A program made the translations under genes and the position numbers. 64,000 nt of DNA from an uncultured Coxiellaceae bacterium (GTDB taxonomy: Bacteria; Pseudomonadota; Gammaproteobacteria; DSM-16500), in assembly GCA_964449835.1 (NCBI GenBank), contig CAYVBZ010000002.1, positions 6,837-70,836 of the forward strand. The letters run 5' to 3'. The notes under the pieces are model-generated. The model ran no database searches, was not told the origin of the DNA, and saw only the letters and a list, made by a program, of their open reading frames with translations. Positions 5,129 to 50,194 of the stretch are shown piece by piece (position 1 is the first letter of the stretch; each line of letters opens with the position of its first letter).

Positions 5129-5153
5129 TTTCACAGATAGAAGGAGTTGTACC

Positions 5154-31062: not shown

Positions 31063-32145
31063 TCACAGCTCTATAACACAGCGCCCAACAATCTTACCAC
31101 TGCGAATATTCGCAATCGCTTCGTTCAACTGGTCCAACGAACAAAAATCCGTAATCAGTTCACGCAGTTTGATCCTGCCGGTATTAAAAAGCTGCTGATA
31201 GCGCGGAATATCTTGATGAGGGACAGTATCACCTCCGTGAGAGCCGCTCAGCCCTTTGCCGAAATGCAGGGGCAAAGAGAAAATATTGATGTTGTTGCCT
31301 TTGCGTGGGACGCCGACCAGTGTGACGCGGCCTTGGGGTTTAATCAGTTGATAGCCCATTTCAATAATGGCCGGAACGCCGGTGTTGTCGATAAAGACAT
31401 CGAGACCCTTGCCACCGATGATTTCTTGAATGGCTTTTTGGGCATCTTGTTTGGCGCTATTGATGCAATGCGTTGCGCCCATGGCTTTGGCCAATTCTAA
31501 TTTGTTGTCATGCAAATCAACGGCGATAATCGGATAAGCGGAGACCAGGGCTGCGGCTTGCACGATATTCAGGCCGATGCCGCCGGCACCGAAAATGACG
31601 ACGGACTCGCCGATGCGGACCTTGGCGTTGTTTTCGATCACGCCGAAGCCGGTGGTCACGGCGCAGCCGAAGAGCGCGGCAACCGCAAGATCGCTGTCAG
31701 CGGGAATTTTGGTCGTGCGGTTTTCGGAGACGATGGCGTACTCATTAAAGGTCGCAATCCAACCCGCATTGACTTTACGGCCCTGCCAGGAATAGGACGG
31801 GGTTTCGGATTCGATGCCTTGGCTTTTGCGCCAGTGGAGAACAACTTTGTCCTCGGGCTTGACGTGGCGGACGCCTGGGCCTATGGCAAGGACGGTGCCG
31901 GAACCTTCGTGGCCGAGGAGATGGGGAAGAAATTTATCTTCACCTTTGGCGCCGTCGATTTCACCGAGTTGGGAGCCGCAGATGCCGCTGTAGTGGACTT
32001 TAACGAGGACTTGGCCGACTTCGAGTTTGGACGGCAGGGTGACCTCGGTGATGAGCAGAGGGGCGCGGAGTTCGGTGAGAATAGCGGCTTTCATGGTTTG
32101 GGGGAATGTTGTCATGGTTAGTGCCTCTTGTTTAATAAGTGTCAA
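31063..32145 (-). CDS. zinc-dependent alcohol dehydrogenase (MDR superfamily)
   Basis: GICGSQLGEIDG..GHEGSGTVLAIG zinc-ADH signature and VIFGAGGIGLNIV NAD motif. The start may be the internal M at 32115. Clearly GC-richer than surrounding genes. Confidence 0.8.
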   Translation of the reverse strand: MTLIKQEALTMTTFPQTMKAAILTELRAPLLITEVTLPSKLEVGQVLVKVHYSGICGSQLGEIDGAKGEDKFLPHLLGHEGSGTVLAIGPGVRHVKPEDKVVLHWRKSQGIESETPSYSWQGRKVNAGWIATFNEYAIVSENRTTKIPADSDLAVAALFGCAVTTGFGVIENNAKVRIGESVVIFGAGGIGLNIVQAAALVSAYPIIAVDLHDNKLELAKAMGATHCINSAKQDAQKAIQEIIGGKGLDVFIDNTGVPAIIEMGYQLIKPQGRVTLVGVPRKGNNINIFSLPLHFGKGLSGSHGGDTVPHQDIPRYQQLFNTGRIKLRELITDFCSLDQLNEAIANIRSGKIVGRCVIEL

Positions 32146-32161: not shown

Positions 32162-33526
32162 CTACCCCTCTCCCGCGAAGCGGGAGAGGGGATTATTAGA
32201 GGAGGGGTGTTGTCGAATTAATCGGGGGAGTTGCTCTATTAGGTAAAGCGGGATGCTCCAAATTGCCCCTTTCGTATTCAATGCTTCCTGCGATAGTTTG
32301 ATTCCCAAAGCGGATCGATGTGATTCCATAAAGAGCTGCAAAGATTTGAGACGACCGGATTTTCCGGACTTTACCTCTAAAGGAATAATGCGGTCATCCA
32401 CCGCGATAGCATAATCAATTTCAGCTTGGCTGCCCCGTGCGTCACGATGCCAATAAAACAACTGTGCACGATCATCGCTAGGTTGAATAGTCAAAAGATG
32501 CTGCCCAACATATTGCTCGGTCAGGGCCCCTCGATTGAGTTGCATTAAATCTTGCCGGAACAGCAATTCCGGCGGGAGATGCTGTGCCGCCTGGATCAAT
32601 CCAAGATCGATAAACAAAAGCTTATAATGCTTTTCTACTTGTGTGGCTGTTAGGGGTAAACCGGTCGCTGAGGTATAGTAAACAGGCATCAGTATATTCG
32701 CTTTAAAGAGCAATTGAATCGCCGCTTTAATGACGCGCCCATCCAGATCGGCGTCAATGTCTGTGTATTTAAAATGCTGACTAACCAAGCCTGGCGCTTT
32801 TTCAAAAACACGCTCACAATAGCGTTGTTGCACGCGGCTGGCATATTTTCCAAAATCAGAACGGTAAGTATTCAATAAAGCGGTTTGAATTTTTCGGCAT
32901 TGCAATAAATCTTTCAGTTCAGCGTAGCATGCCAGGACCTGCGGCATGCCGCCCGTGATAAAGTATAAACGCAACAATTCGAGTAGCTTTTCGTGGACTG
33001 AAACTGGAATTTCATCTTTTATCCCCAACTGGCCCATGAAATCTAAAAGCTGGTTTTCTCCTAGGGCCATCAGCATTTCAGTAAAGGTCAGCGGATATAA
33101 ATACTGAAACTCCACGCGCCCCACCGGCATGCTAAAGTTATCTGCATTCAAGCTAAACTCTAAAAGTGATCCGGCGCCAATGACATGTAACTGGGGAAGC
33201 TCCTCAAAGAAATAACGCAGCGCTTGAATCGCTGCGGGACATTCCTGAATTTCATCCAAAAATAAGAGGCTTTCGCCTGGGACTAAGGCTTGATTGGAGA
33301 GCAGTTCAATTTCTTGGATGATTTGCTTGACCTTGAGGGTCTTGAAGCAATTTTTGTACCGGGGGTCTTGCTCGAAATTGATTATGATGACCCTTTTGAA
33401 ATGACCTCCTCCAAACTCCTTGATTATATAAGTTTTTCCAGTTTGCCTTGCGCCTCGGACCAAAAGCGGCATACGGGTGGGGCTGGTTTTCCACTCAATA
33501 AGCTTTTGAATAATTAGTCTTTTCAT
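32162..33526 (-). CDS. AAA+ ATPase with C-terminal DUF4143-like (PD-(D/E)xK-like) region
   Basis: Walker A GARQTGKT and Walker B LLFLDEIQ. Distal IPLEVKSGKS block. The last 9 codons (PLSRFAGEG) are encoded by the 32165-32191 hairpin repeat. Confidence 0.75.
   Translation of the reverse strand: MKRLIIQKLIEWKTSPTRMPLLVRGARQTGKTYIIKEFGGGHFKRVIIINFEQDPRYKNCFKTLKVKQIIQEIELLSNQALVPGESLLFLDEIQECPAAIQALRYFFEELPQLHVIGAGSLLEFSLNADNFSMPVGRVEFQYLYPLTFTEMLMALGENQLLDFMGQLGIKDEIPVSVHEKLLELLRLYFITGGMPQVLACYAELKDLLQCRKIQTALLNTYRSDFGKYASRVQQRYCERVFEKAPGLVSQHFKYTDIDADLDGRVIKAAIQLLFKANILMPVYYTSATGLPLTATQVEKHYKLLFIDLGLIQAAQHLPPELLFRQDLMQLNRGALTEQYVGQHLLTIQPSDDRAQLFYWHRDARGSQAEIDYAIAVDDRIIPLEVKSGKSGRLKSLQLFMESHRSALGIKLSQEALNTKGAIWSIPLYLIEQLPRLIRQHPSSNNPLSRFAGEG
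32165..32191. repeat. REP-like GC-rich hairpin, 12-bp stem (CCCCTCTCCCGC-GAA-GCGGGAGAGGGG)
   Basis: Perfect inverted repeat read from the DNA. Sits between the ATPase and ADH genes. Related C/G-rich hairpins occur at 62429-62495. Confidence 0.6.
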
Positions 33527-33617: not shown

Positions 33618-34289
33618 TTATTCAAAATAAATAAACGAGTGGTCCCCTGTATACCCCGTCTGCTTAAACCACCAATCCCACTCTTCCGGCGTACAAAAAG
33701 ACTCACAGGTCACTTGCCAGTAAAGTAAATTAGCCTTCTCTTGCTCATTCCGGTAAGACTCAACACAGACATATTTATTTTTCTTGCCCACGCGTTCAAT
33801 TTCGCGCAAAGCAGGATCCAGGTCGTAATTGTGCAGATTATGCAAGGTGGTGATTGAGACCACAAGGTCAAAATATTGGTCCGGAAAAGGCAGCTGCTTA
33901 GCATGGCCCACCTGCAGGCGGTCACGGATTTCTTCTTTGGCATTTTCAATGGCATAGGGGGAAACATCCATGCCATAAACTTCAACGCCGGGAACGATCT
34001 TCGTAAAATCATAAAGCAAATAGCCTTTGCCGCAGCCAACGTCCAAGACCTTGTCGCCGGGTTTAATACCATAATGCTCAGCCAAAGCACGGGCCACTTT
34101 TTCCCAGCGGCCTTCCATATAGCGATAGCCGCCGTAACAAATGCGTCGGTCGCCGTCCCAATAGTCGTAGCCCCATTGCTTGGCCAGGACTGCGGCTTTG
34201 GCCTTGGGATATTCCGGCTCATTCACACGGGCAAGATAATCGCGTTTGGTACTTTTATGCAGCACTGACATAAAATCATGGTAAGCCAT
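33618..34289 (-). CDS. class I SAM-dependent methyltransferase
   Basis: VLDVGCGKGYLL (motif I) and FDLVVSITTLHNL (motif II/III). Last gene of the minus-strand operon. Confidence 0.8.
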   Translation of the reverse strand: MAYHDFMSVLHKSTKRDYLARVNEPEYPKAKAAVLAKQWGYDYWDGDRRICYGGYRYMEGRWEKVARALAEHYGIKPGDKVLDVGCGKGYLLYDFTKIVPGVEVYGMDVSPYAIENAKEEIRDRLQVGHAKQLPFPDQYFDLVVSITTLHNLHNYDLDPALREIERVGKKNKYVCVESYRNEQEKANLLYWQVTCESFCTPEEWDWWFKQTGYTGDHSFIYFE

Positions 34290-35334
34290 AAGCTTGCGTC
34301 TCCAAAGACTGTATTAAACGGTTGACCTTATTCACTTGCGTGCGCTTCAACTCCGCAACATTCAAGCTGGGATTGGCGAAGCGGTAACGGGCAAGATGGA
34401 CGGGAAGAAAAATGTTCAGCGCGATGCAGCACCATTTCACGCGGTAAACCAAGCGCAAAAGCTTTGCGCGAAATACGAGTTGCTGCGCGTTCACAAAAGG
34501 CTGCATGACGGTTGCAACAAAGCTATCGAAGAGTTCCGGGGGAACCGGCAAGGCGAGTTGTGAAAAAAAGTCGCCTGTCATTTTTGCAGGGTCGTCCCAA
34601 CCAGCATATTCAAAATCAAGAAAACAGAGCTGCCCATCCGCAAGCTTAAGCGCATTGTGAAAACCAAAATCTGATGGCGAAATGCAACGCTGCCCCGTCT
34701 TCAGTTCAACGTTCAGGTCCACTCCCGCGCTTTGGGCGGCACGGGCCACTTCCACCATTAGACCGCGCCAATAAGCGCTTAAGCGCAAAATCAAAAGCCG
34801 CGCCTCATGGTCTTCGACGGTCTCCGGGAGCATTTTCTCCAATTGTTGAATGCGGGCGCTGATCAACTGAAAATGTTCTTGGATTGAAAAACAGGCTTCC
34901 GAAGCCTTGGGCAAAGCTTTGGCTTTTGCGCGCTGCTCGGACTGATTGAGGGCACAGAAAAAATCGGCGGCCTGGGCCACTTCATTCGCTGTGACGTCTT
35001 GCGGCAGCAAAGGTTGGCCTTCAATTAATTCATAGAGTGCCATACTCATTTGCGGATCTTGATAAAAAGGCTTAGGCACCTGTTTTGGCGCAACCGTCAC
35101 AGCATAAGTCAAAAAAGCAAATTCCGCCGCTAAACGATCGCGAAGGTCGCCCGTCTGACACAAATATTGCTTAATGATAAAAGCGCCATCCGCCGTTTGA
35201 ATGCGATAAGTTCGATTATTACGCCCCTGGGTACAATTTTTGATGGACAAAACATCCGGCTGTAAACCCGCGGCAGTGAGTAAGGCAGCAATTTGCATCA
35301 CAAATTCAATAGAAGAAGGTCGGGTATCAATCAT
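34276..35334 (-). CDS. phosphotransferase of the APH / choline-ethanolamine kinase fold
   Basis: ISPSDFGFHNAL (Brenner-type catalytic loop) and CFLDFEYAGWDDPA (ChoK-like DFEY motif). I chose the ATG at 35334 because of its ATGA overlap with the HAD gene stop. Confidence 0.65.
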   Translation of the reverse strand: MIDTRPSSIEFVMQIAALLTAAGLQPDVLSIKNCTQGRNNRTYRIQTADGAFIIKQYLCQTGDLRDRLAAEFAFLTYAVTVAPKQVPKPFYQDPQMSMALYELIEGQPLLPQDVTANEVAQAADFFCALNQSEQRAKAKALPKASEACFSIQEHFQLISARIQQLEKMLPETVEDHEARLLILRLSAYWRGLMVEVARAAQSAGVDLNVELKTGQRCISPSDFGFHNALKLADGQLCFLDFEYAGWDDPAKMTGDFFSQLALPVPPELFDSFVATVMQPFVNAQQLVFRAKLLRLVYRVKWCCIALNIFLPVHLARYRFANPSLNVAELKRTQVNKVNRLIQSLETQAYGLP

Positions 35335-35942
35335 GACAATCCTATTTGCTTTTCCAAAGCCCCCCAAGAACCGGCCACTTCAACTTCCGGGAGGCTTTTA
35401 TCTAAGTGATGGCCCTGGGGATCAAAGAGGAAGCGCTTGATATGCCGCGGGAAATTAGCAGCCAGCAGAATTTCCGGCAAATCATCAATGAAGACCTCAC
35501 AGCCAAAATCACGGATCCGGGCTAGTTTTTCATCTTTCGTTAACTCGAAGAAAACACGGTCTTCTGGAATATAAGGAACCTGGTTATCACAGAGATAACG
35601 CTCAACCCAGGCGCGGGCAGCCAAATGAAGATCGTATTTGGGGCCGAGATAATTATGCTTGGTTTTATGACTAACGATAGCCAGGGTGTGGCCGGCCTCT
35701 TTGGCCAAACGAATAAAACGCAAAACGCCCGGGTAAGGCCCTGCTTCTACCATGCGAAGTCCGTAGACATAGCCTTGCATTTCAGTCCACAGGTCTTCTT
35801 TGTCAATACTACGCAGATAATCACGAACAGCGGTTTTGTTCGCCGGCAGGTCTTTGGGGACTACCCCCTGCTCCAGGGCTACCTTGTGAAAAATTTGATC
35901 GTAGTTTACGATGGTATTATCAAAATCAAGACCGATCCGCAT
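35331..35942 (-). CDS. HAD-superfamily hydrolase (phosphatase candidate)
   Basis: MRIGLDFDNTIV (DxDxT motif I), AIVSHKT and VFIDDLPE. ATG at 35942 preferred over the listed TTG at 35957. Confidence 0.7.
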   Translation of the reverse strand: MRIGLDFDNTIVNYDQIFHKVALEQGVVPKDLPANKTAVRDYLRSIDKEDLWTEMQGYVYGLRMVEAGPYPGVLRFIRLAKEAGHTLAIVSHKTKHNYLGPKYDLHLAARAWVERYLCDNQVPYIPEDRVFFELTKDEKLARIRDFGCEVFIDDLPEILLAANFPRHIKRFLFDPQGHHLDKSLPEVEVAGSWGALEKQIGLS

Positions 35943-35953
35943 AACAACCCCCT

Positions 35954-36895
35954 TCAAGCCACGATTCTTGCGCGTTGTTCTGGCATTTTTGCGAGAACAC
36001 GGGCAGCAATTTGCTCGGCTTCGAGGCCGTATTTCACCTGCGCGTATTTTTGGCTGCCAATTTCATGCATGAATTCATCCGGTGTTCCGAGACTCAGATG
36101 AGGAATTTGCGCTTCATCTCGTGAACGCCATTCAGCCACCGCGCCGCCTAGACCGCCAATGCAATTGTGTTCTTCAATGGTCACGAGCAATTTAAAGCGG
36201 GAATTGGCTTTCTGCAGATAAACTGTGTCCAGTGGTTTAATGCTGTGAAAGGAAACCACTTCGGCGGAAATGCCATGGTCTTTTAAAATATCCGCGGCTT
36301 TCAGCACTTCCGGCATGATGATGCCGGCACTAAGCAAAGCCACATCGACGCCTTCGCGTACCACCAGGCTTTCGCCGATGCAAAGCTGCGGTCTTTCTTG
36401 ATGAATTTTGGGCTCCCCTTTTTTGCCGATGCGAATATAAACGGGCCTCTCTTGCTGCAGCGCTGCACGCAGCATTAAATCAAGCTCAACCGCATCACAA
36501 GGCGCTAAGACACACATACCTGGCAGCGTCCGTAAAATAGCCATATCTTCCAAGGAATGGTGCGTAGGACCGAGTTCTGCATAAGACAAGCCTGAACCGG
36601 TGCCCACAATAATCACAGGCGCCTGATGATAACAAACATCCACGCGAATCTGCTCAAAACAACGGGTGGTGGTGAAAGGCGTAATGGTGTAAATCACCGG
36701 CCTGAGTCCATTCAAAGCCATGCCGGCCGCAACGCCCATCATATTGGCCTCGGCCACCCCGCAATTATAAAACCGGGCGGCATCCACTTTTTTGAAATTG
36801 TCGAATAACTTATTGCCAATATCGCCCGAAAGCAAAACGACACGCGGGTCTTCTTGGGCTAATTGGGTCAGTGTGTCTGCAAACGCATTTCTCAT
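35954..36895 (-). CDS. transketolase, C-terminal (pyrimidine-binding) subunit of a split enzyme
   Basis: FYNCGVAEANMMGVAAGMALNGLRPV pyrimidine-binding motif. 313 aa. 4-nt overlap with the N-terminal subunit gene. Confidence 0.85.
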   Translation of the reverse strand: MRNAFADTLTQLAQEDPRVVLLSGDIGNKLFDNFKKVDAARFYNCGVAEANMMGVAAGMALNGLRPVIYTITPFTTTRCFEQIRVDVCYHQAPVIIVGTGSGLSYAELGPTHHSLEDMAILRTLPGMCVLAPCDAVELDLMLRAALQQERPVYIRIGKKGEPKIHQERPQLCIGESLVVREGVDVALLSAGIIMPEVLKAADILKDHGISAEVVSFHSIKPLDTVYLQKANSRFKLLVTIEEHNCIGGLGGAVAEWRSRDEAQIPHLSLGTPDEFMHEIGSQKYAQVKYGLEAEQIAARVLAKMPEQRARIVA

Positions 36896-37716
36896 GTTCC
36901 AGTCTCCAATTCACGCTCCGCCGCTTCAACTTCCGCCGCATTCGGAATACGGTAATGCCAATTATTATCATCTTCCATAAAAGAAACGCCCTTCCCTTTC
37001 ACAGTGTGGGCGATAATGGCCGTCGGTTTGCCGTTTGCGGCAGGAAAGCTTTTCAAGGCATCCAAGAGCTCTTCTATGTTGTGGCCGTCGATCTCGCAGG
37101 CATTCCAGCCAAAGGCACGCCATTTTTCGGCGAGCGGCTCAAGTGACATGACTTCACAACTGCGTCCGGTGGCCTGCCATTTATTAAAGTCGATGATGGC
37201 GCAGAGCTTTGACACTTTTTGGGACGAAGCCAATAGAGCAGCCTCCCATACAGAGCCTTCATTGCATTCACCATCACTCAGGACCGCATAGACGCGATAA
37301 TCTTTCTGGTGGATCCGCCCAGCAAGCGCCATGCCTAAGCCCATGGGAAAGCCATGGCCCAGGGAACCCGTTGCAGCCTCAATACCTGGTAATTGTTCCG
37401 GTGCGGGAGGATGTTCGGCAAACAAGCCACCGTCTTCACCATAGGTCTCTAGCAAGCTTTCCGGATAAAATCCGCGCATAGCCAGAACTTGAAAGAGCGC
37501 TGGCGCCCCGTGTCCCTTGCTGAGAACAAGGCGGTCGCGGTCAGGATCTCGCGGCTTCTTCGGATCAAGACGCAGCACAGAAAAATACAGCGCTGTTAGA
37601 ATATCCACGCAAGACAGGCAAGAACCCAAATGTGGAATCGAGGCCTGGTGCGAAGTTTTGATGATGCGCCCCCGCAATTTGCGGGCAATGGCTTCCAGCT
37701 CTTTAATCGTCGTCAT
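36892..37716 (-). CDS. transketolase, N-terminal (ThDP/PP-binding) subunit of a split enzyme
   Basis: PHLGSCLSCVDILTALYF, LSKGHGAPALF and GSLGHGFPMGLGMA...LSDGECNEGSVWEA (ThDP motif). I chose the start at 37716 (MTTIKELE...); the listed 37974 start runs through the upstream gene. Confidence 0.85.
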   Translation of the reverse strand: MTTIKELEAIARKLRGRIIKTSHQASIPHLGSCLSCVDILTALYFSVLRLDPKKPRDPDRDRLVLSKGHGAPALFQVLAMRGFYPESLLETYGEDGGLFAEHPPAPEQLPGIEAATGSLGHGFPMGLGMALAGRIHQKDYRVYAVLSDGECNEGSVWEAALLASSQKVSKLCAIIDFNKWQATGRSCEVMSLEPLAEKWRAFGWNACEIDGHNIEELLDALKSFPAANGKPTAIIAHTVKGKGVSFMEDDNNWHYRIPNAAEVEAAERELETGT

Positions 37717-37720
37717 CTCA

Positions 37721-38707
37721 TTAAGCCTTATGAATATAGTCATAGGGTTGCCCTTTGAGCATTTCAAAGTGCTTATGGACCCAGGCAATACAATCATCAA
37801 GCCCTTGGTCCAGGCTGACCTGGTCCTGCCAGCCCAATTCTTTGCGCAATTTGCCGCTGTCCAGTTGATAAGCCGCGTCTTTGCCGAGGCGTTCACCCAC
37901 AACTTCCACATAGTCCTCGAAGGGCACCTCCAACTTCTTACAAATCCGTTCAACCAGTTCGCGGATAGAAACAATTTCCTGGGTAGAAATATGATAAGTG
38001 TCGCCGTTCACGCCCTTTTCCATAATGCGCCAGGTGGCCTCGGAAACATCTTTCATATGAATGAAGGAGCGGGTGGAGACACCCCCGCCATGCAACTGGA
38101 GTTTTCTCCCCAAAAGAATAAACAAAATCGTGCGCGGAATGATGCGATAGAGCTGCTGGCCTGGCCCATAGACATTCGCCGCGCGCGTTGTGACTACGGG
38201 AAAATTGTAGGCGTTGTGAAAGGTGCGCAGACTCAGGTCAGCCGCGGCGCGGGACACGGCGTAAGGCGTGCTGGGGTTTAAGGGATAATCTTCCCTCACA
38301 AAACCCGAACAAGAACCGTAGACTTCCGGCGTCGAAACATGCACATAGTGCTGGATAAAGTCATATTTGCGCAATTCATCATGCAGTTTGATGGTGGACA
38401 CCGTATTGGTTTGAAACCAATCACCAGGCGCGCGCCAACTTTCAGCCACCATGCTTTGCGCCGCGAAATTGATAACATAAGCCGGTTTAAATTTTTGAAT
38501 CAAGTCCATCATTTCCGGCAAATGTGCATTTAAGTCCATTTGATGGAAGGTGAACTGCTTTCGGGGACGCCACTTATAGGGCAAAAGAGCGTCGACGGGC
38601 TCCGCTGAACGGCTGGTGCCAATGACTTCCACCCCATGGTCCAGGGCAAAATCAACAAAGCTTGAGCCGGAAAAGGAATTGCTGCCAATCACAAATAACT
38701 TATGCAC
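37721..38707 (-). CDS. extended SDR, NDP-sugar 4,6-dehydratase/epimerase-like, with atypical YxxxR in place of YxxxK
   Basis: VIGSNSFSGSSF Rossmann motif. STPYAVSRAAADL occupies the position where the family has SPYSASKAA. I chose the GTG at 38707, 6 nt after AAGGAG; the listed start is a TTG at 38722. Confidence 0.75.
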   Translation of the reverse strand: MHKLFVIGSNSFSGSSFVDFALDHGVEVIGTSRSAEPVDALLPYKWRPRKQFTFHQMDLNAHLPEMMDLIQKFKPAYVINFAAQSMVAESWRAPGDWFQTNTVSTIKLHDELRKYDFIQHYVHVSTPEVYGSCSGFVREDYPLNPSTPYAVSRAAADLSLRTFHNAYNFPVVTTRAANVYGPGQQLYRIIPRTILFILLGRKLQLHGGGVSTRSFIHMKDVSEATWRIMEKGVNGDTYHISTQEIVSIRELVERICKKLEVPFEDYVEVVGERLGKDAAYQLDSGKLRKELGWQDQVSLDQGLDDCIAWVHKHFEMLKGQPYDYIHKA

Positions 38708-39293
38708 AAGAAACTCCTTCAACTAATTCCACATGAGGCCTATTTTCATAGCACCATTGCATGAGCATATGGCCCACGATCAATTGCAGATCTTCTGCAA
38801 TTTGCATGTCATCCACTGGAAAATGTACGGCGACATCGGCCAGATCTTTGCTGCGCCCGCCAGAATAACCCAAGATAGCGTAGGATTTCACCCTCATGGA
38901 CTTAGCCTGCTGCAGAGCGGCGAGAATATTGGGTGAATTGCCGCTGCCGGAAAGCACAAGCAGCAAATCGCCGGGTTCCGCTTGAACGGCCAGTTGCTCA
39001 GAATAGATGCGGTCATAGCCGACGTCGTTTGCAAGACAAGTCAGGACAGCGGGATTGGCTGAGAGAGCATGTATGCGCATGCCGCCGCCAACACGCTTAG
39101 CGATGCCATAGATAAAGTCGTTGGCAAGGTGCATGGCGTTGCCGGCACTGCCGCCATTGCCGCAAATAAAAATTTGCTTTTTATGGATCCAGCAGTGATA
39201 GAGGTCTTGCGCCAACTGGGCCACCGGCTCCCAATCCGCTTGCGCCAGCACTTCTTGCAAGCGCTTCGCATAGTTCGAGAAAAATGCTTTCAT
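38700..39293 (-). CDS. SIS-domain sugar-phosphate isomerase, GmhA-like (second copy)
   Basis: IFICGNGGSAGNAMHLANDF. ATG at 39293 is preceded by AAGGAAA. Confidence 0.8.
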   Translation of the reverse strand: MKAFFSNYAKRLQEVLAQADWEPVAQLAQDLYHCWIHKKQIFICGNGGSAGNAMHLANDFIYGIAKRVGGGMRIHALSANPAVLTCLANDVGYDRIYSEQLAVQAEPGDLLLVLSGSGNSPNILAALQQAKSMRVKSYAILGYSGGRSKDLADVAVHFPVDDMQIAEDLQLIVGHMLMQWCYENRPHVELVEGVSCA

Positions 39294-39303
39294 GAGACTT
39301 TCC

Positions 39304-40239
39304 TTATACAACGTTTTTTTGCATCCACTTCAGATTATAAAAATGTTCTTCATTTTTGAGGAGGCCAGCGCGGTAGTGTTCGACCATTTCCTGGATGGCG
39401 TCCTTGACCTTTTTCTTAGGCTTGAAGCCGGCTTTCAGAATTTTGTCTGAATTGACACGATAGGAACGCGGATCGTTTGAGGCCGTGACAGAAATTTCCG
39501 CGGGCACGTACTCGGTGACCATTTTGGCGATCTCCAGGATCGAGATATTTTCAAAACCGGCATTAAAGATACCTGTCGCCTCGGGATGATCTAAAAGGAA
39601 AAGATAGGCGTCGGTGATGTCATCGATATGAATATTCGGCCTGACCTGATTGCCGCCGAAAACCGTGATTTTGCCGGCGGTGAGCGCCTGCATGGTCAGC
39701 ATGTTGACGGAAACGTCGAGACGCATGCGGGGTGAATAACCGCAGACCGTGGCCGGGCGGACCATTTGCACGACCATGTCGTTCTGGTAGCTCATCAGGA
39801 CGCGCTCGGAGACCATTTTAGTCTTGTTATAAGCAGAAATCGGGTCCAATTCCAGGTCTTCCGTCACCTGTTCTTCTTCCTTAACGCCATAGACGGAGCC
39901 TGAGGAGGCATAGATGAAGCGCTTAATGCCCTGGCGCTTGGCTTTATCGGCAAGCTGCATCGTGGCGAGTGCGCTGACTTCCCAAGTCAATTGAGGGTTT
40001 AGGTCGCCGCAGGGATCATTGGCCACGGAAGAAAGATGAATAATGCAGTCCACGCCCTGAAGCGGGACCTTGTTCAGGTCACGGATATCCCCTTTCATGA
40101 CTTGCAGTTTGGGATGGGGTTGATGGAAATTACCGAACCATTGGGTATCGAAGGCGACCACCTCGTAGCCGCGATCTAAAAGTTTTGGGACAAGAACGTG
40201 GCCTTTGTAGCCGCAACCGCCGGTGACTAAAACTTTCAT
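39304..40239 (-). CDS. NAD-dependent nucleotide-sugar epimerase/dehydratase (extended SDR)
   Basis: VLVTGGCGYKGHVL Rossmann motif and YNKTK catalytic YxxxK. Confidence 0.8.
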   Translation of the reverse strand: MKVLVTGGCGYKGHVLVPKLLDRGYEVVAFDTQWFGNFHQPHPKLQVMKGDIRDLNKVPLQGVDCIIHLSSVANDPCGDLNPQLTWEVSALATMQLADKAKRQGIKRFIYASSGSVYGVKEEEQVTEDLELDPISAYNKTKMVSERVLMSYQNDMVVQMVRPATVCGYSPRMRLDVSVNMLTMQALTAGKITVFGGNQVRPNIHIDDITDAYLFLLDHPEATGIFNAGFENISILEIAKMVTEYVPAEISVTASNDPRSYRVNSDKILKAGFKPKKKVKDAIQEMVEHYRAGLLKNEEHFYNLKWMQKNVV

Positions 40240-40258
40240 GCTGTACCTCTTATTATAG

Positions 40259-40960
40259 TTAATAGGGACGAAATTCTAACTCTGCCTGTTTTAAACTGTC
40301 CACCGTGCCGATATCGCGATGATAATCGTCATTATGAAAAGCCTGCATTTTGCCCAGAAAATGGGGAAGGACTTCCGTGCTGAGATCAATGACCTCTTTG
40401 CGAAGCGTTGCTAAAAACGAAATGACACTGGGTTCTACGAGATAAACTGCCGCGTTAGCGCAGATACCAGGCGGTCGAGCAACTTTTTCGTGAAAAGCGA
40501 CCACCCTGCCCTGCGCGTCCTGCTCGACGATGCCGCAGCTTTTGGGCGTGTCGGTGTCGAAAGTCATCATGGTGATTTCAACGCCGGGTTGACGTTGCTC
40601 ATGGGCTTGGATAAAAGCCCCAACGTCAAAGCGCGTCAGATTGTCGGCATGCGCTAAAATAAAAGGCCCTTCTTCTAAAAAATCTCGGTTCTTGAGCACA
40701 GTGCCGCCTGTGCCCAGCAATTGATCTTCATGCACCAAATGGAGCCGCTCGCACCAATGCGAGTTGCGTACAAAATTTCTGACAGCCTCGGGCAAATAAT
40801 GGGTATTCACCAGAATTTGATCAACATGATCAGGCAGTAACAGGTCCAGCCAATATTCCATTAAGGGTTTGCCATGGACTGGCGCCAGGCATTTAGGCAG
40901 GGTATCCGTTAAAGGCCGTAGACGAGTTCCTAGCCCTGCCGCCAGTAACACTGCTTTCAT
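40259..40960 (-). CDS. sugar-1-phosphate nucleotidyltransferase
   Basis: MKAVLLAAGLGTRLRPLTDTLPKCL signature. 4-nt overlap with the upstream gene. Confidence 0.8.
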   Translation of the reverse strand: MKAVLLAAGLGTRLRPLTDTLPKCLAPVHGKPLMEYWLDLLLPDHVDQILVNTHYLPEAVRNFVRNSHWCERLHLVHEDQLLGTGGTVLKNRDFLEEGPFILAHADNLTRFDVGAFIQAHEQRQPGVEITMMTFDTDTPKSCGIVEQDAQGRVVAFHEKVARPPGICANAAVYLVEPSVISFLATLRKEVIDLSTEVLPHFLGKMQAFHNDDYHRDIGTVDSLKQAELEFRPY

Positions 40961-42477
40961 AAACTGTTTAACTCCTGCAAGACCTCATTGGCAGTCAAAG
41001 GTAAATTGCCAATCCGTCCCACCTGACAAGCCGCCGCGATCGAACCGAGATAGGCGCTCTCCCAGATATCTGCTCCCGCAACAAGGGCCATAGCAGCACA
41101 GGTTAATAAGCAATCGCCGCCCCCGGCCACATCTTTGGGCGCAGCGTTTAAAGCGGGCAAGCGATCAATATGAATACCGCTGCGTGTATTGTCCGAAGTC
41201 TGAATCAGCAAGCCTTCCGCACCCAAAGTGATCAGCACATGCTTCGCGCCGGCTTTTTTCTGCAAGCCTTCAGCGAGAACACCAAGACCGGAACCGGTCC
41301 CTTCTCGCACCGCCAAACGCGCCTCATGTTCAGTTGGGGTAATAAGCAGCATACCCTGAAAGCGGGAAACATCTCCGACCTGGGAAGAAGACTGGCTGTC
41401 CGCCACCATTGGAATATTATATTGATTGCAGAGCGAAGTTGCCGCATCCACCAAGGAGGGCGACAAACAGCCATAATTAAAATCGGAAAAAATAACAAGA
41501 TCAGCGTCCTGAATGGTTTTGGCTAATTCATTGCGCAGCTTCTTGACCAACTCCTGGCCGATTTGATGATGGCGCAGCTGTGAAACACGCAGCAAGGTTT
41601 TATTGTCGGCACGAAAACGTTGCTTCAAGGTCGTCGGCCGGCTCTTGTCTTTAATGAGATTGGCTTCGACTTGATAAGCCTGCAAAGCATCGCGCGCGAA
41701 TTTAGCAGCTTCATCTTCCCCAACAACGCTGAAGTAATTCACGTGGGCGCCCAGACTGCGCGCATGAGCAGCCACAATGCCGGCACCACCTAAAAAGAGG
41801 TCTTTTTTGATTGGCATGACGACGATGGTTGGATCTTCCTGGGACATGCCCAAGGGGTTGCAAGTGATATATTCATCCACAATGAGATCACCGAGGACAA
41901 CAACTTTAAGTTCGGCAAAACCATGCACCACTTCGGCCAATTTTTTGACGTCAAGTTGATGACGCTCGACAAAATCTGTCGGTTGGCGAATGGTGGAAAT
42001 ATTAACTTCTTTAAACTCTCGGCGCAAAAGATCCAGTGAGGAAAGCGAAGACTCACCGGAGGTGAACAAAAGTCTGCCGCCATAGCTCTCAACAACGGCC
42101 TGCTCTGGATTAAAATGTTGCTCGTGTTCCTTTCCCTTGACGACGATATCGGGTTTTAGGCAGGTAATCAGTTCTTCAACAGGACAGGGCAGCACAGCGG
42201 CATAATCCACACAGCCAATGGCACGCACGCCCTCTAAGCGCAAATTTTGTGGCAAGTGCGTTCCCGGCGTGAAATCAGGACTGAGGCCAACGACCAAAAA
42301 ATCCGCGCATTCCGCGGCAAAATTCAGCAAACTCAAATGCCCAGGGTGAACGATATTAAAATTTCCCGAGACAAAAGCCATGCGTTTGCCTTCCTTCATC
42401 TGGCTTTTAATTTCAGCGGTTAACCTCACAACCTCCGCAGCTTGCTCTTCCTTTAAGACAACTTGTCCTAAGCTCAT
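40957..42477 (-). CDS. bifunctional cytidylyl/adenylyltransferase-like + PfkB sugar kinase (HldE/RfaE-like domains in reversed order)
   Basis: N-terminal FVSGNFNIVHPGHLSLL (HxGH nucleotidyltransferase). C-terminal VVVLGDLIVDEYI..QEDPTIVV..GGAGIVA and DVAGGGD, which is PfkB and resembles the heptose-7-P kinase domain of RfaE. Confidence 0.75.
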   Translation of the reverse strand: MSLGQVVLKEEQAAEVVRLTAEIKSQMKEGKRMAFVSGNFNIVHPGHLSLLNFAAECADFLVVGLSPDFTPGTHLPQNLRLEGVRAIGCVDYAAVLPCPVEELITCLKPDIVVKGKEHEQHFNPEQAVVESYGGRLLFTSGESSLSSLDLLRREFKEVNISTIRQPTDFVERHQLDVKKLAEVVHGFAELKVVVLGDLIVDEYITCNPLGMSQEDPTIVVMPIKKDLFLGGAGIVAAHARSLGAHVNYFSVVGEDEAAKFARDALQAYQVEANLIKDKSRPTTLKQRFRADNKTLLRVSQLRHHQIGQELVKKLRNELAKTIQDADLVIFSDFNYGCLSPSLVDAATSLCNQYNIPMVADSQSSSQVGDVSRFQGMLLITPTEHEARLAVREGTGSGLGVLAEGLQKKAGAKHVLITLGAEGLLIQTSDNTRSGIHIDRLPALNAAPKDVAGGGDCLLTCAAMALVAGADIWESAYLGSIAAACQVGRIGNLPLTANEVLQELNSL

Positions 42478-42547
42478 GAATCGTAGTCCAATGATGGTTT
42501 ATATTATTTTTCCTGAGAAGGATTCTAAAACATTATTTACATCAAGG

Positions 42548-43162
42548 CTACAAGTTGGTCCCTTCCCGCAACGAAGTTGCGGGAAGGGACCCATAGAGGG
42601 CGGCTTCCACCAAAGCGCAAATAATATGGCCAAAAATGATATGTCCTTCTTGAATTTTGGATGTTTCAGAAGAGGGAATGTTTAAAACGAGATCACAACG
42701 CTCAGTCATCTGTGGCGCTGAGACGCCTGTAAAACCAATGGGGACCACTCCCTTCGCACGTGCAGCCTCCAAGGCTTTCAGCACATTCGCAGACTTTCCC
42801 GAAGTTGAAATGCCGATAAACAGGTCCCCTTCTCGCCCTAAGGCTTCAATCTGGCGGGCAAAAAGATAGTCAAAAGAATAATCATTCCCAATCGCTGTTA
42901 AAGCAGAAGTATCTGTGGTTAAAGCCATGCCAGCCATCGCTGGCCGATCTGCAGACAAACGGCAGACCAACTCTGCCGCCAAATGCTGGCTATCTGCGGC
43001 AGAGCCGCCATTGCCAGCGAATAAAATTTTTCCACCGTTGCGCAGCACTTGTGCACAACGGTCTGCAATTCTCTCAGCCGTCTTGAGCAAGCTCTCACTC
43101 GCTAGCATTTGGTCTAGCAAAGCCCGCGACTTGAGCAGTTCTTGCTTAATCAAAGCATACAT
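42548..43162 (-). CDS. gmhA: D-sedoheptulose-7-phosphate isomerase (SIS), most canonical of the three copies
   Basis: ILFAGNGGSAADSQHLAAEL, ISTSGKSANVL and the C-terminal QEGHIIFGHIIC. Confidence 0.75.
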   Translation of the reverse strand: MYALIKQELLKSRALLDQMLASESLLKTAERIADRCAQVLRNGGKILFAGNGGSAADSQHLAAELVCRLSADRPAMAGMALTTDTSALTAIGNDYSFDYLFARQIEALGREGDLFIGISTSGKSANVLKALEAARAKGVVPIGFTGVSAPQMTERCDLVLNIPSSETSKIQEGHIIFGHIICALVEAALYGSLPATSLREGTNL

Positions 43163-43175: not shown

Positions 43176-44387
43176 TTACGTCAATTTTGACTGAATCAGG
43201 TCCACCACATAGTCCGCAAAGGGCAGGGCGCAAGTAAAAGCCGGCGACACCGCATTCAAAACATGCATGGACTTCTGATCGCCTTCCAAAATAAAGTCCA
43301 TTTCCAGCTTACGTGTCTGGGTATTTAAGAGTTGCGCCCGGATACCGGGTTTGCCCCAGGTTTTATAATTGCCTGGGTAAACTTCAGACACCAGCTCCGC
43401 GGCCCGCCTCGCCAAAACAGCGCGGCTATATTTTCTAAGCTCTTCAAAAGCGAGTTGTCTAAAATCAAAACCCGCATTCACAAACAAACCCAGTTCGCGC
43501 GTGAAAATTTGCCACAATTCCGAAAAACTAAATCCTGACAAACCGCTATAATGTTCGCGCCAAAAAGCCGGTATGGCCGTTGGACCAATTTTAACCTTGC
43601 CGTCCACGGTGAGCGTAAAGTGTACCCCAAGAAAGGGATTTCGTAAATCTGGGACGGGATAGATGTGCGTTTTTAAACTCTCTTGCAGATTGGAGGCATA
43701 AAGATACAAGCCTTTGAAAGGCAAAATTGTATAATTTTTGCAAAAGGAAAAATTTTTGGCAATCTGGTCGGCGTATAAACCAGCGGCATTCACCACATAC
43801 CCTGCCTCAAAAATATCACACTGGGTCTTGATGCGTTGTCCGCGATTGCTTAAATATTTTACGCCCAGTAAAACCTCCACCCCCTCAGCGCGGGCATCCA
43901 CTAACATTTGCTCGATGACCTGCTTAGGCGAAACCGTGGAAGTTGTCGGTGAAAAAAGCGCTTTTTCCCAGGTTTTCACGCGGGGTTCAATTTCTTGAGC
44001 TTCTTCTGCACTCAGCTCTTCCAATTGAATGCCATTTTGTTGACCACGCTGCAGCAGTTCATGGAGGCCGGCCAGCTCATTTTCATTGCGGGCCACGACC
44101 AATTTCCCGCAGCGGTCCAAAGGGAGTTTTTTTTCTATGCAGTATTCTGTCAGCCTGCGATTGCCGTCACGGGTAAATTTGGCCTTGAGGCTATCTTTGG
44201 TGTAGTAAAATCCCGCATGCAAAACACCGCTATTGCGTCCGCTGGCGTGTTCGCCAATGTGTGCTTCTTTTTCCAGCACAAGAACCTGACAGTCGCGATA
44301 ACGGGACTTTAGGGTACGCGCAATGCTTAAACCAACGATGCCGCCGCCAATAATGATAAAGTCGGCTGTTTGCTGGGCTTTTGGCAT
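43176..44387 (-). CDS. FAD-dependent oxidoreductase, L-2-hydroxyglutarate oxidase (LhgO)-like
   Basis: DFIIIGGGIVGLSIA FAD motif and HASGRNSGVLHAGFYY. ATG at 44387 lies 1 nt after the upstream stop; the listed 44453 start overlaps the kinase gene. Confidence 0.7.
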   Translation of the reverse strand: MPKAQQTADFIIIGGGIVGLSIARTLKSRYRDCQVLVLEKEAHIGEHASGRNSGVLHAGFYYTKDSLKAKFTRDGNRRLTEYCIEKKLPLDRCGKLVVARNENELAGLHELLQRGQQNGIQLEELSAEEAQEIEPRVKTWEKALFSPTTSTVSPKQVIEQMLVDARAEGVEVLLGVKYLSNRGQRIKTQCDIFEAGYVVNAAGLYADQIAKNFSFCKNYTILPFKGLYLYASNLQESLKTHIYPVPDLRNPFLGVHFTLTVDGKVKIGPTAIPAFWREHYSGLSGFSFSELWQIFTRELGLFVNAGFDFRQLAFEELRKYSRAVLARRAAELVSEVYPGNYKTWGKPGIRAQLLNTQTRKLEMDFILEGDQKSMHVLNAVSPAFTCALPFADYVVDLIQSKLT

Positions 44388-44388
44388 C

Positions 44389-45402
44389 CTAGGCACAGAT
44401 CTCTTGGGAAGTTTTTTGCACACGCTCACGGACCAAATCAAGTTCTTCTTCATTCAAACGGGGGCCAAACTTTGAAACCACTTTAGAGGCGGCAAAGCTC
44501 GCTAAATTACCTGCTTCGAAATAGTCATAGCCATTGGTGATTGCATAGAGAAAAGCACCTGCAAAAACATCTCCTGCGCCCACCGTGTCCATCACAGGAA
44601 CACTGTAAGCCTGGATAAATGAAAAACGTTCGCCGTCGTAGACAATCGCCCCTTCCCCACCCAGGGTAATAATAAAAGTACGTGCACATTTTTTAAGAAC
44701 AGCTTGCGCTTCCGCCAGGGTTTCTGTTTTGGTGAAAAGCAAGGCTTCCCGTTCATTGCAAAATAAAATATCAACCTGATCGCCGATAATGGCACAAAGC
44801 CCTTCATTAAAATAAGTGACCATATTGGGATCTGAGAGAGAGAGGGCTGTTTTCACGTTATGCTTTTTTGCCATTTGACGGGCAATAATAGCCGCTTCAC
44901 AACCCAAGGGTGAAGCGACCAGATAACCTTCGATATAAAGGTATTCCGCTTTTTTTAAGGCTGCTTCTGAGAGTTGGTCTTTGGAGAACTCTGAGGTGGC
45001 GCCTAAAAAAGTATTCATGGTACGGTCCGCGTCCGGCGTGACAAGGACAATACATTTTCCCGTGGTCCCTTTGCGGTGACCTTCATGCAGGTTGGTTTGA
45101 ATGCCATTCACAACTAAGTCGCGGTAGAAAAAATCGCCGGTTTCATCAGTTCCAACTTTGCAGGAATAGAAAGCTTTGCCGCCCAATTTTTGCAGCGTGA
45201 AAACCGTGTTGGCCGCAGACCCGCCGCAAGTCTTTAAATGTTTCACGCCATCCAATTCTTCCAATAAAGAATGGTGTTTTTCCTCATCTATTAAGGTCAT
45301 GACGCCTTTGGCAATATTGAGCCTCTCTAAGGTCTCCGCGCTTACCTCAAAATCAATATCGACTAAAGCATTGCCAATGGCATACACGTGAAATTTGGTC
45401 AT
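44389..45402 (-). CDS. PfkB-family kinase, adenosine kinase-like
   Basis: AIGNALVDIDFEV N-terminus and DTVGAGDVFAGAFLYA PfkB signature. Confidence 0.7.
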   Translation of the reverse strand: MTKFHVYAIGNALVDIDFEVSAETLERLNIAKGVMTLIDEEKHHSLLEELDGVKHLKTCGGSAANTVFTLQKLGGKAFYSCKVGTDETGDFFYRDLVVNGIQTNLHEGHRKGTTGKCIVLVTPDADRTMNTFLGATSEFSKDQLSEAALKKAEYLYIEGYLVASPLGCEAAIIARQMAKKHNVKTALSLSDPNMVTYFNEGLCAIIGDQVDILFCNEREALLFTKTETLAEAQAVLKKCARTFIITLGGEGAIVYDGERFSFIQAYSVPVMDTVGAGDVFAGAFLYAITNGYDYFEAGNLASFAASKVVSKFGPRLNEEELDLVRERVQKTSQEICA

Positions 45403-45435
45403 TATAAAACTTCCTGTAAAAAGGTTCGCAGTTTA

Positions 45436-46323: not shown

Positions 46324-46406
46324 GAGAGAGCAGTCCTTGTTGATTCAACATTATATACCCATTACACTTCAAAATGCGATATTAGCATTATGAAGTGACT
46401 CTACAC

Positions 46407-50075: not shown

Positions 50076-50194
50076 TGGTGGTTACACTTAAGGTGGCCCT
50101 TTGAGACGGTGCTTCGCACCTCCTCAGGGCGAATGATTTTTTTGTTCTTCCGATGAAGTCCTTGGGAGACTTCATCGGGAAGAATTATTACGTT
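50076..50194 (-). promoter_or_regulatory. structured metK-metH intergenic leader: 16-bp hairpin (50145-50184) plus an imperfect hairpin (50096-50130)
   Basis: Minus-strand RNA reads UUCUUCC(C)GAUGAAGUC-UCCCAAG-GACUUCAUCGGAAGAA, then GCCCUGAGGAGGUGCGAAGCACCGUCUCAAAGGGC. A downstream CACCU can pair with AGGUG. Confidence 0.3.

Follow-up and report, generated by a model that had tools for sequence, protein, structure and literature searches.

The closest described relatives of the system analyzed here are the heptose systems of Campylobacter jejuni, the ADP- and GDP-heptose pathways, and a few routes in which a thiamine diphosphate (ThDP)-dependent or pentose-phosphate-type enzyme acts in the biosynthesis of a sugar. 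The system itself is a cassette of genes around a split transketolase in a polysaccharide locus of an uncultured Coxiellaceae bacterium (GenBank assembly GCA_964449835.1, contig CAYVBZ010000002.1, positions 6,837 to 70,836 of the forward strand). This whole stretch of 64,000 nucleotides is referred to as the window, and coordinates without a locus name are positions within it. Our tentative proposal, which we hold with some reserve, is that the product of the cassette is a methylated, nucleotide-activated sugar with either a branch or a higher number of carbons, the transketolase adding two carbons to a carbonyl.

With the C. jejuni heptose systems (PMC10680097), the cassette shares a GmhA-like isomerase, a heptose-7-phosphate-kinase-like domain fused to a nucleotidyltransferase, an HddC/ManC-like NTP transferase, and a pair of short-chain dehydrogenases/reductases (SDRs) resembling a C4-dehydrogenase and a 4,6-dehydratase; the 2-oxoglutarate/L-2-hydroxyglutarate link of those systems is suggested here by an adjacent gene for an LhgO-like oxidase. 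However, in comparison with the C. jejuni, ADP-heptose and GDP-heptose enzymes, the bifunctional enzyme has its domains in the reverse order and all of the NCBIfam scores fall under the equivalog cutoffs. Moreover, the heptose pathways have no counterpart to the cassette transketolase, the choline kinase (ChoK)-fold kinase, the capped HAD phosphatase, the zinc-dependent alcohol dehydrogenase (Zn-ADH) or the C-methyltransferases. Unlike the ADP-heptose pathway (GmhA-HldE-GmhB-HldD), the operon has neither GmhB nor HldD (the HldD-type model TIGR02197 matches weakly, with 33-70 bits), and a GmhB-like gene lies outside the operon at 4595-5128. Unlike the GDP-heptose pathway (GmhA-HddA-GmhB-HddC), it has no GHMP kinase, the HddA-like gene being in a separate operon at 2264-3247.

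Among the routes with a carbon-carbon bond-forming enzyme, yersiniose biosynthesis offers a likeness in that a ThDP enzyme encoded in an O-antigen locus (YerE) adds a two-carbon unit to a nucleoside diphosphate (NDP)-4-keto sugar, followed by reduction (YerF). However, YerE belongs to the decarboxylase superfamily (acetolactate-synthase-like) and uses pyruvate as donor, whereas the cassette enzyme is a heterodimer of the transketolase family with its ketol-donor histidines intact. For miharamycin and amipurimycin, it has been proposed that an oxidoreductase acts first and that a split-gene transketolase then transfers a hydroxyacetyl group onto the keto sugar; 13 examples of this type are predicted, all from Streptomycetes, and none is proven in vitro (PMC12247030). 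Compared by description, these clusters share with the cassette a split transketolase beside an oxidoreductase able to make the keto acceptor, but they specify Streptomyces nucleoside antibiotics, whereas the cassette occurs in polysaccharide loci of Gram-negative bacteria and other phyla and, unlike them, has HAD, kinase, methyltransferase and reversed-HldE partners.

The GDP-octose route of lincomycin biosynthesis employs LmbR, LmbN, LmbP, LmbK and LmbO. GDP-octose, LmbK and LmbN are mentioned in PMC12945683. Here, too, a pentose-phosphate-type carbon-carbon enzyme has been recruited to a nucleotide-sugar line with a GmhA-like isomerase, a kinase, a phosphatase and a nucleotidyltransferase; however, the lincomycin enzymes are a transaldolase, a GHMP kinase and a GmhB phosphatase, as opposed to the transketolase, APH-fold kinase and non-GmhB HAD of our operon. 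A lincomycin-type enzyme set (LmbR/N/P/K/O) is present elsewhere in the window, at 421-5888 inside the polysaccharide locus. It forms part of a second nucleotide-sugar line (421-7513, plus strand) made up of a classical SDR, a GFO/IDH/MocA oxidoreductase, an HddA-like GHMP kinase, an NTP_transferase, a third SIS protein, a GmhB-like HAD-IIIA phosphatase, a transaldolase (TIGR02134, 334 bits versus a cutoff of 282), and then a methyltransferase-GT2 fusion. The preliminary description of the window could not place the gene set of the cassette in a known pathway, and a full-text literature search found no paper describing it.

The eleven genes of the run are as follows, in the order of transcription:

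42548-43162, minus strand: SIS1, GmhA-like sedoheptulose-7-phosphate isomerase (PF13580)
40957-42477, minus strand: CT-PfkB, 506 aa, cytidylyltransferase-like N-terminal domain and heptose-7-phosphate-kinase-like C-terminal domain (PF01467, PF00294)
40259-40960, minus strand: NTP_transferase, sugar-1-phosphate nucleotidyltransferase, ManC/HddC-like (PF00483)
39304-40239, minus strand: SDR1, extended SDR of the oxidoreductase/epimerase type (PF01370)
38700-39293, minus strand: SIS2, divergent GmhA-like sugar-phosphate isomerase (PF13580)
37721-38707, minus strand: SDR2, NDP-sugar 4,6-dehydratase-like SDR of the dTDP-glucose type (PF16363, 177 bits)
36892-37716, minus strand: TktN, transketolase N-terminal (ThDP/PP) subunit (PF00456)
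35954-36895, minus strand: TktC, transketolase Pyr + C subunit, "G/L" type (PF02779, PF02780)
35331-35942, minus strand: capped HAD phosphatase (weak Pfam match; DxDxT, S, K and DD motifs)
34276-35334, minus strand: small-molecule kinase of the APH/choline-kinase fold (PF01636)
33618-34289, minus strand: class I S-adenosylmethionine (SAM)-dependent methyltransferase, MT (PF13847, PF08241)

The preliminary description had presented these genes as a packed, co-directional set in which a heptose-type activation line adjoins a split transketolase, a ChoK-fold kinase, a HAD phosphatase and a methyltransferase. A check of the open reading frames (ORFs) bore this out, with all eleven on the minus strand at the coordinates claimed and with domain labels that agree with Pfam and NCBIfam. 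The distances between successive genes are 70, -4, 19, 10, -8, 4, -4, 11, -4 and -14 nt; the lone large gap is the 70-nt gap reported earlier, but overlaps of 4 nt number three rather than four, and two further overlaps measure 8 and 14 nt. No consensus promoters or terminators were found in any intergenic gap of the run, and neither class was enriched relative to shuffled sequence.

Both transketolase subunits find their best PDB matches in the split transketolase of Carboxydothermus hydrogenoformans: 6yak for TktN (6e-71), followed by human transketolase, and 6yaj for TktC (1.5e-60), followed by 1-deoxy-D-xylulose-5-phosphate synthases. Like the C. hydrogenoformans enzyme, that of the cassette is encoded by two genes, and the ThDP and donor residues of the two agree. 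In TktN, the donor histidines H29, H69, H102 and H254 (human H37, H77, H110 and H258) are invariant or nearly so among 71 homologues, H102 being replaced by Gln in four of them, and the ThDP motif xDGE...N is kept, with its Asn in 68 of the 71. As both the ThDP motif and the donor histidines are retained, formation of the dihydroxyethyl-ThDP intermediate should be intact.

The acceptor side is different. The TktC motif in the window reads G-T-G-S-G-L-S-Y-A-E-L-G-P-T-H, as opposed to the canonical T-H-x-G...G-E-D-G-x-[ST]-H; where the C. hydrogenoformans enzyme has the canonical T-H-x-G ... G-E-D-G, the cassette enzymes have T-G-x-G ... A-E-L-G. The position of E. coli H461 is occupied by Gly in all 79 TktC homologues, that of E. 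coli D469 (yeast D477) by Leu (72/79) or Asn (7/79), and that of E. coli S385 by Lys or Arg in 75 of the 79; the equivalents of E. coli R358 and R520 are kept. In the TktC of the window, the Gly and Leu in question are Gly100 and Leu108. In the E. coli enzyme, H461 and S385 contact the substrate phosphate and D469 hydrogen-bonds to the C2-hydroxyl of the acceptor, and D469 variants are shifted towards non-hydroxylated aldehydes. Judging from these substitutions, the acceptor pocket of the cassette transketolase is remodelled. This bears on the most ordinary explanation of the locus, namely that the transketolase is a housekeeping enzyme of the pentose phosphate pathway around which neighbours have become packed by chance. 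Such an enzyme would be expected to have a bona fide split transketolase as its best PDB match and intact ThDP and donor residues, and it has both. However, a housekeeping role is very unlikely on the alignment, because two canonical substrate-binding residues are replaced throughout the family.

The distribution of the cassette was examined in two ways: one genome per species was scanned with an alignment of the kinase, giving at least 576 confirmed loci; and the proteins of the window were placed on 89 loci. Carriers include Coxiellaceae, Legionellaceae, Rhodocyclales, Herbaspirillum, Azospirillum (on plasmids) and Polynucleobacter, as well as Nitrospina, Microcoleus (cyanobacteria), Planctomycetes, Elusimicrobia and Saccharibacteria. 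The colinear core has the order SDR1-SIS2-SDR2-TktN-TktC-HAD-APH-MT-ADH (APH being the ChoK-fold kinase), often followed by C-methyltransferase, cupin, SDR and C-methyltransferase genes and then by CT-PfkB with the NTP_transferase. In the 89 loci, the kinase was found 84 times, HAD 83, TktC 80, TktN 77, MT 77, SDR1 73, SDR2 72, ADH 64 and SIS2 52 times. Thus, the conservation of the gene set, which the preliminary description wanted to see checked by co-occurrence and synteny, holds for the core, kept in order across phyla, but not for SIS1, present in only 8 of the 89 loci. Core proteins are usually 60-90% identical, even between phyla. MT is the best conserved of them, with 74-87% identity across most loci of the main variant and 57-70% in the planctomycete, cyanobacterial and elusimicrobial variant. 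A soil metagenome contig, 75% identical, has the full set in the same order. Because the same order is found in at least 80 independent genomes, the arrangement is far beyond chance.

Variants of the cassette are also found. A short form in Aquicella, SDR1-TktNC-HAD-APH-MT-ADH, lacks SIS2 and SDR2, and wherever these two are absent, SDR1 lies directly upstream of TktN. In Planctomycetes, cyanobacteria and Elusimicrobia, a rearranged variant opens with a second type of CT-PfkB; in Microcoleus, a gene for a GmhB-like HAD-IIIA phosphatase comes right after CT-PfkB, and therefore the HAD of the module has a separate role. HAD and kinase are fused into one protein in several genomes. Genes for Wzm/Wzt ABC transporters are frequent neighbours, as expected of O-antigen or capsule loci. 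The occurrence of the cassette is patchy and includes plasmids of Azospirillum and Solidesulfovibrio; it is widespread in surface-glycan loci and looks horizontally mobile. Both the patchy, mobile-looking distribution and the gene order kept across phyla inside glycan loci argue further against a housekeeping transketolase with chance neighbours, an explanation that we now regard as highly improbable.

A second clade of such transketolases was encountered among the Desulfovibrionales. When plasmids were searched with the kinase by tblastn, one distant match was obtained, on plasmid pDCAR1 of Solidesulfovibrio carbinolicus (locus L090), where the order is pseB-pseC-HAD-APH-TktN-TktC-MT. The TktC beside HAD and kinase is 37% identical to that of the window, has the motif G-N-G-G-G-M-V-Y-A-P-L-G-P-T-H, and shares the Gly and Leu signature. 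The canonical split transketolase encoded a few kb away on the same plasmid keeps His and Asp (TktC1). The same motif as in the L090 protein is present in 116 of its 120 close homologues, and the equivalent of D469 is Leu in every readable clade-2 sequence (116/116); clade-2 TktC proteins are 35-40% identical to those of clade 1. Two further observations were made on this plasmid: an intact TktN gene, missing from the plasmid's gene table, lies at 12988-13910 of L090 between the genes for the kinase and the G/L-type TktC; and the canonical split transketolase pair (2977-4745) lies beside an ATP-grasp ligase gene and pseudaminic acid genes.

In other loci of this kind, the unit is set among different partners. 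In Maridesulfovibrio salexigens, the order is NeuB-like, CT-PfkB, SIS, radical SAM, HAD, APH, TktN, TktC, MT; in L093, it is SDR, SDR, CT-PfkB, HAD, APH, TktN, TktC, MT, ADH; and in L092, a probable HAD-APH fusion is followed by TktN, TktC, MT and ADH. Across the loci examined in both clades, G/L-type transketolases are always accompanied by HAD and the kinase, and usually by MT, ADH and CT-PfkB. The portable core is thus HAD, the ChoK-fold kinase and the G/L-type transketolase, the last of which appears from its residues to be a distinct transketolase subfamily. In two of the five loci sampled, the transketolase follows directly after SDRs that form 4-keto groups (SDR1 in L007, pseB-pseC in L090). 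Of the remaining three, L091 lacks SDRs, L092 has one that is not adjacent, and in L093 CT-PfkB intervenes between two SDRs and the unit. In L038, L072 and L091 (clade-2 or variant loci), a conserved protein of ~316-340 aa with a weak ArgZ-like Rossmann-domain match is encoded after CT-PfkB.

These comparisons also redraw the extent of the cassette. The preliminary description had taken the eleven-gene operon as the natural unit and had overlooked the Zn-ADH, the L-2-hydroxyglutarate oxidase and a block of C-methyltransferase and cupin genes. The counts over the 89 loci instead split the operon into two co-travelling modules. Because comparative genomics separates the transketolase core (SDR1-SIS2-SDR2-TktNC-HAD-APH-MT-ADH) from the CT-PfkB plus NTP_transferase pair, the eleven genes are two modules side by side, adjacent here by happenstance; in most of the genomes mapped, the pair is found at the opposite end of the cassette. 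The genes that flank the eleven-gene run are:

43176-44453, minus strand: L-2-hydroxyglutarate oxidase, FAD-dependent, LhgO-like (NF008726, PF01266)
32162-33526, minus strand: DUF4143/AAA_14 ATPase (PF13173, PF13635)
31063-32145, minus strand: Zn-dependent, NAD-type alcohol dehydrogenase, ADH (PF08240, PF00107)
29470-30708, minus strand: C-methyltransferase (PF08421, PF08484)
28958-29482, minus strand: WbuC-family cupin (TIGR04366)
28209-28955, minus strand: classical SDR (PF13561)
27174-28190, minus strand: 338-aa protein with no assigned family
25883-27127, minus strand: second C-methyltransferase (PF08421, PF08484)

The LhgO gene, on the same strand and 13 nt upstream of SIS1, scores above the equivalog cutoff of NF008726 (330 versus 299 bits). 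It is present in 14-15 of the 89 loci, and in four of these (L009, L020, L045 and L051) it is directly upstream of SDR1. Its longest ORF runs 65 nt into the upstream kinase gene; as the FAD-binding motif starts just past Met23, translation probably begins at this residue, at ~44387. The Zn-ADH is a member of the cassette, as it follows MT in 64/89 loci. In the window, the DUF4143 ATPase gene separates the two. The closest relatives, L005 and L010, have no such gene between MT and ADH, and a copy 85% identical follows MT in L015 only, among the loci mapped; the ATPase gene is a local insertion and no member of the pathway. Four genes of the remaining block, those for the two C-methyltransferases, the cupin and the classical SDR but not the one for the 338-aa protein, follow ADH in 17-33 of the 89 loci in varying order.

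Gene content, conservation and active-site substitutions are direct observations, from which we infer the steps that follow. Sedoheptulose-7-phosphate would be converted to an NDP-heptose-type sugar by the SIS isomerase(s), the kinase and cytidylyltransferase-like domains of CT-PfkB, and a phosphatase. The top NCBIfam models of SIS1 are those of phosphoheptose isomerases (179-188 bits, under their cutoffs). In CT-PfkB, the PF01467 domain (residues 36-143) precedes the PF00294 domain (residues 227-490), in reverse order to HldE, and the scores remain below the cutoffs for rfaE_dom_I (208 versus 345 bits) and NF008454 (149 versus 521 bits). Its motifs HxGH, GG-D and TPTE are conserved. Its PDB matches are 4e84, a D-beta-D-heptose 7-phosphate kinase, for the kinase domain and, for the N-terminal domain, 5x9q, a putative cytidylyltransferase that we take to be a heptose-1-phosphate adenylyltransferase. 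Proteins of this architecture accompany the transketolase core in both clades. Homologues of the reversed HldE-like protein number in the thousands (60-67% identity; Nitrospira, Rhodocyclales, Methylomonas and others). In Methylomonas and a wastewater organism, CT-PfkB sits with an NTP_transferase, a DAO-family oxidase, C-methyltransferases and a cupin, and no transketolase is found in these two CT-PfkB loci. The NTP_transferase gene of the window overlaps that of CT-PfkB by 4 nt, and the two adjoin in most of the 27 loci carrying both; its product scores 79 bits on the HddC model (cutoff 300) and best matches, in the PDB, mannose-1-phosphate guanylyltransferases and a protein of the 6-deoxy-D-mannoheptose pathway.

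The adjacent dehydrogenases would then create a carbonyl without a free alpha-hydroxyl. The best PDB match of SDR1 is 6vo6/6vo8 (E 1.6e-33), of which 6vo6 is presumably Cj1427, a C4-dehydrogenase; the motifs SSGSVYG and YxxxK are invariant in 65 homologues, and SDR1 is possibly a C4-dehydrogenase as well. Cj1427 is a ping-pong GDP-heptose C4-dehydrogenase in which 2-oxoglutarate re-oxidises the bound NADH and is itself turned into L-2-hydroxyglutarate (PMC10680097). If SDR1 acted in the manner of Cj1427, LhgO would regenerate 2-oxoglutarate and so close the 2-oxoglutarate/L-2-hydroxyglutarate cycle. For SDR2, a 4,6-dehydratase-like reaction giving a C4 ketone is envisaged; its best PDB matches are dTDP-glucose 4,6-dehydratases, it scores 212 bits on TIGR01181 (cutoff 365), and it has the motifs S-T-P-E-V-Y-G, with Pro127 and Glu128 invariant, and YxxxR/K. 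The Zn-ADH, which is nearest to class I/III and benzyl alcohol dehydrogenases and has invariant catalytic zinc ligands and Asp210, looks like an NAD-type enzyme with features of primary-alcohol dehydrogenases, and may oxidise an alcohol to an aldehyde.

Next, the split transketolase, carrying dihydroxyethyl-ThDP and with its acceptor pocket altered from His to Gly, Asp to Leu and Ser to Lys/Arg, would add a glycolaldehyde unit to this carbonyl, giving either a hydroxyacetyl branch or an extended chain. HAD and the ChoK-fold kinase may remove and re-install a terminal phosphate around the transketolase step, or add a cryptic one. MT, which has generic PDB matches only, would O-methylate the sugar, and the C-methyltransferases, cupin and classical SDR would tailor it further. 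We favour two-carbon addition because of: the Asp-to-Leu and His-to-Gly changes; the adjacency of SDR and transketolase genes; the re-use of the unit behind pseB-pseC; and the proposal made for miharamycin and amipurimycin. Hence, active-site changes and gene neighbourhoods together lean to addition to a sugar carbonyl, the second of two readings offered in the preliminary description.

Several points weigh against this proposal. A kinase and a phosphatase within a tailoring route lack a clean explanation, and two nucleotidyltransferases plus two kinases exceed what one activated sugar needs. The phosphate loop of SIS2 and both phosphate-binding arginines of the transketolase are kept, which fits sugar-phosphate chemistry, and the same window has a transaldolase-based line with precursor-building logic. 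LhgO is found in only about 15 of the 89 loci, and the identity of 6vo6 as Cj1427 is presumed. In addition, acceptance of ketones has yet to be demonstrated for any transketolase (PMC12247030).

Some of these points would be accounted for if the transketolase made an unusual ketose phosphate, e.g., octulose-8-phosphate or a modified heptulose-7-phosphate, which SIS2 would isomerise to an aldose phosphate. The ChoK-fold kinase would then phosphorylate C1, HAD would remove the terminal phosphate, and the NTP_transferase would make the NDP-sugar, to be tailored by the SDRs, ADH and methyltransferases. This, the first reading of the preliminary description and the main rival to our proposal, is the logic of LmbR/N/P/K/O, with a transketolase replacing the transaldolase. 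In line with it, SIS2 keeps the sugar-phosphate loop (SGSGNS) and catalytic His55 and His175, with Glu65 changed to Asp (TIGR00441, 109 bits versus a cutoff of 209); the transketolase not only keeps both arginines but gains a Lys or Arg; the HAD-kinase fusions suggest consecutive steps; and the NTP gene resembles those of ManC, HddC and 6-deoxy-mannoheptose pathway enzymes. The full line of transaldolase, SIS, GHMP-kinase, GmhB and NTP enzymes at 421-5888 further argues for it, and therefore precursor-building logic is in use at this locus. However, loss of the Asp that reads the 2-hydroxyl of the acceptor argues against ordinary aldose-phosphate acceptors. Also, SIS2 is absent from 37 of the 89 loci, NTP is absent from many as well, and in L090 the unit is downstream of pseB-pseC without any SIS gene. 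HAD, for its part, is deoxyribonucleotidase-like and not GmhB-like. Finally, in the planctomycete/cyanobacterial variant, CT-PfkB (with the GmhB-like phosphatase in Microcoleus) covers activation, and HAD and the kinase would therefore be redundant. On balance, we consider the making of a ketose-phosphate precursor rather unlikely, with a real chance of being correct nonetheless.

The kinase and HAD themselves offer few clues. A PDB sequence search gave no match for either. The AlphaFold2 model of the kinase (pLDDT 89.6) has choline/ethanolamine kinases, LicA, methylthioribose kinase and NahK as neighbours (TM 0.5-0.6), and that of HAD (pLDDT 90) is nearest to 5'(3')-deoxyribonucleotidases (TM 0.65-0.69) and is not GmhB-like; the HAD motifs DxDxT, S, K and DD are invariant among homologues. 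On these models, such generic fold neighbours fix no substrate for the kinase or HAD.

The choline/ethanolamine kinases and LicA among the neighbours of the kinase are consistent with a third explanation, which takes one of two forms: in a route like that to kanosamine and 3-amino-5-hydroxybenzoic acid (AHBA), an NDP-sugar would be modified and HAD would release the sugar, which the kinase would then phosphorylate again; after isomerisation, the transketolase would cut or rebuild it; or the transketolase, ADH, HAD, kinase and MT would build a small methylated polyol phosphate, from which a cytidylyltransferase would give a CDP-alcohol to be attached to the glycan as a phosphodiester substituent. 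The classes of oxidoreductase, HAD, kinase, isomerase and transketolase match the RifL/K/M/N plus transketolase route. The portability of HAD-APH-TK-MT across loci of the heptose, pseudaminic acid and NeuB types also speaks for this explanation, as does the fold of the CT domain, that of glycerol-3-phosphate and ethanolamine-phosphate cytidylyltransferases. However, this domain is fused to a heptose-7-phosphate-kinase-like domain and has 5x9q, presumably a heptose-1-phosphate adenylyltransferase though labelled a putative cytidylyltransferase in the PDB, as its best solved relative, ADH resembles primary-alcohol dehydrogenases rather than polyol-phosphate reductases of the TarJ type, and among the genes conserved with the cassette there is none for a transferase that forms phosphodiesters. 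Taken jointly, the two forms seem to us improbable.

Other candidates were considered and rejected: a methyl-phosphate chain terminator like WbdD, consisting of the kinase and the methyltransferase, as the proteins are small and separate, their genes lie within a set for precursors, and where the kinase is fused, its partner is HAD; the LicA/LicC route to phosphocholine, as the cassette has no aminotransferase or choline-related genes; salvage of methylthioribose or 5-deoxyribose, as SAM-cycle neighbours are confined to the closest relatives (MTHFR in 3/89 loci, MetK and the kinase in 1/89 each); and biosynthesis of virenose or dihydrohydroxystreptose, as Coxiella burnetii is outside the best 80 loci and no paper was found that connects a transketolase with either sugar.

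Just upstream of the cassette in the window and co-directional with it (44389-51358, minus strand) are genes for MetK, B12-dependent MetH, MTHFR and a PfkB-family, adenosine-kinase-like kinase. MetH, MTHFR and the kinase are arranged alike in L005, where the kinase gene is split and two additional genes separate MetH from MTHFR; MTHFR is also found in L012 and L016. Most likely, these SAM-cycle genes provide a dedicated supply of methyl groups to the locus, which encodes at least four methyltransferases and a radical SAM enzyme. Farther downstream (21857-22564, minus strand), a 235-aa DegT/DnrJ/EryC1 ORF matches only positions 178-359 of the 360 in the Pfam model and is probably the pseudogene of a truncated aminotransferase; it adjoins an acyltransferase_3 gene and a third C-methyltransferase gene (20387-21631). 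The glycan locus is flanked by genes for an ankyrin-repeat protein (51473-52138, minus strand) and a radical SAM-TPR fusion (18882-20348, minus strand). Ankyrin-repeat proteins are typical of intracellular Legionellales and Coxiellaceae, and together with the closest loci this gene points to a relative of Coxiellaceae/Legionellales as the source of the window.

The cassette joins known kinds of enzymes, for nucleotide-heptose activation, SDR tailoring and ThDP-dependent carbon-carbon bonding, in a combination that has not been described. Its wide distribution, strong conservation and testability in cultured carriers make it of real interest. Among the cultured strains that carry it are Herbaspirillum rhizosphaerae UMS-37, Aquicella lusitana, Azospirillum sp. 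A26 and Maridesulfovibrio salexigens DSM 2638, so that the question of what it makes can be addressed directly. It is conceivable, and our cautious preference, that the G/L-type split transketolases with their HAD, ChoK-fold kinase, MT and reversed-HldE partners represent a large unrecognised family that extends or branches sugars by two carbons. If so, hundreds of species from more than 10 phyla, environmental as well as host-associated, would carry an undescribed class of C8-C9 or hydroxyacetyl-branched methylated sugars in their surface glycans. The G/L-type enzyme would be the first transketolase shown to act in glycan precursor biosynthesis and a natural counterpart of the D469 acceptor-pocket engineering used to broaden transketolase substrates, and enzymes of this type would provide ready-made biocatalysts for stereoselective carbon-carbon bond formation on sugar carbonyls. 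For the bacteria concerned, which include relatives of the intracellular Coxiellaceae and Legionellaceae, plant-associated Herbaspirillum and Azospirillum, cyanobacteria and sulfate reducers, it would mean that their surfaces carry a new family of higher-carbon or branched sugars.

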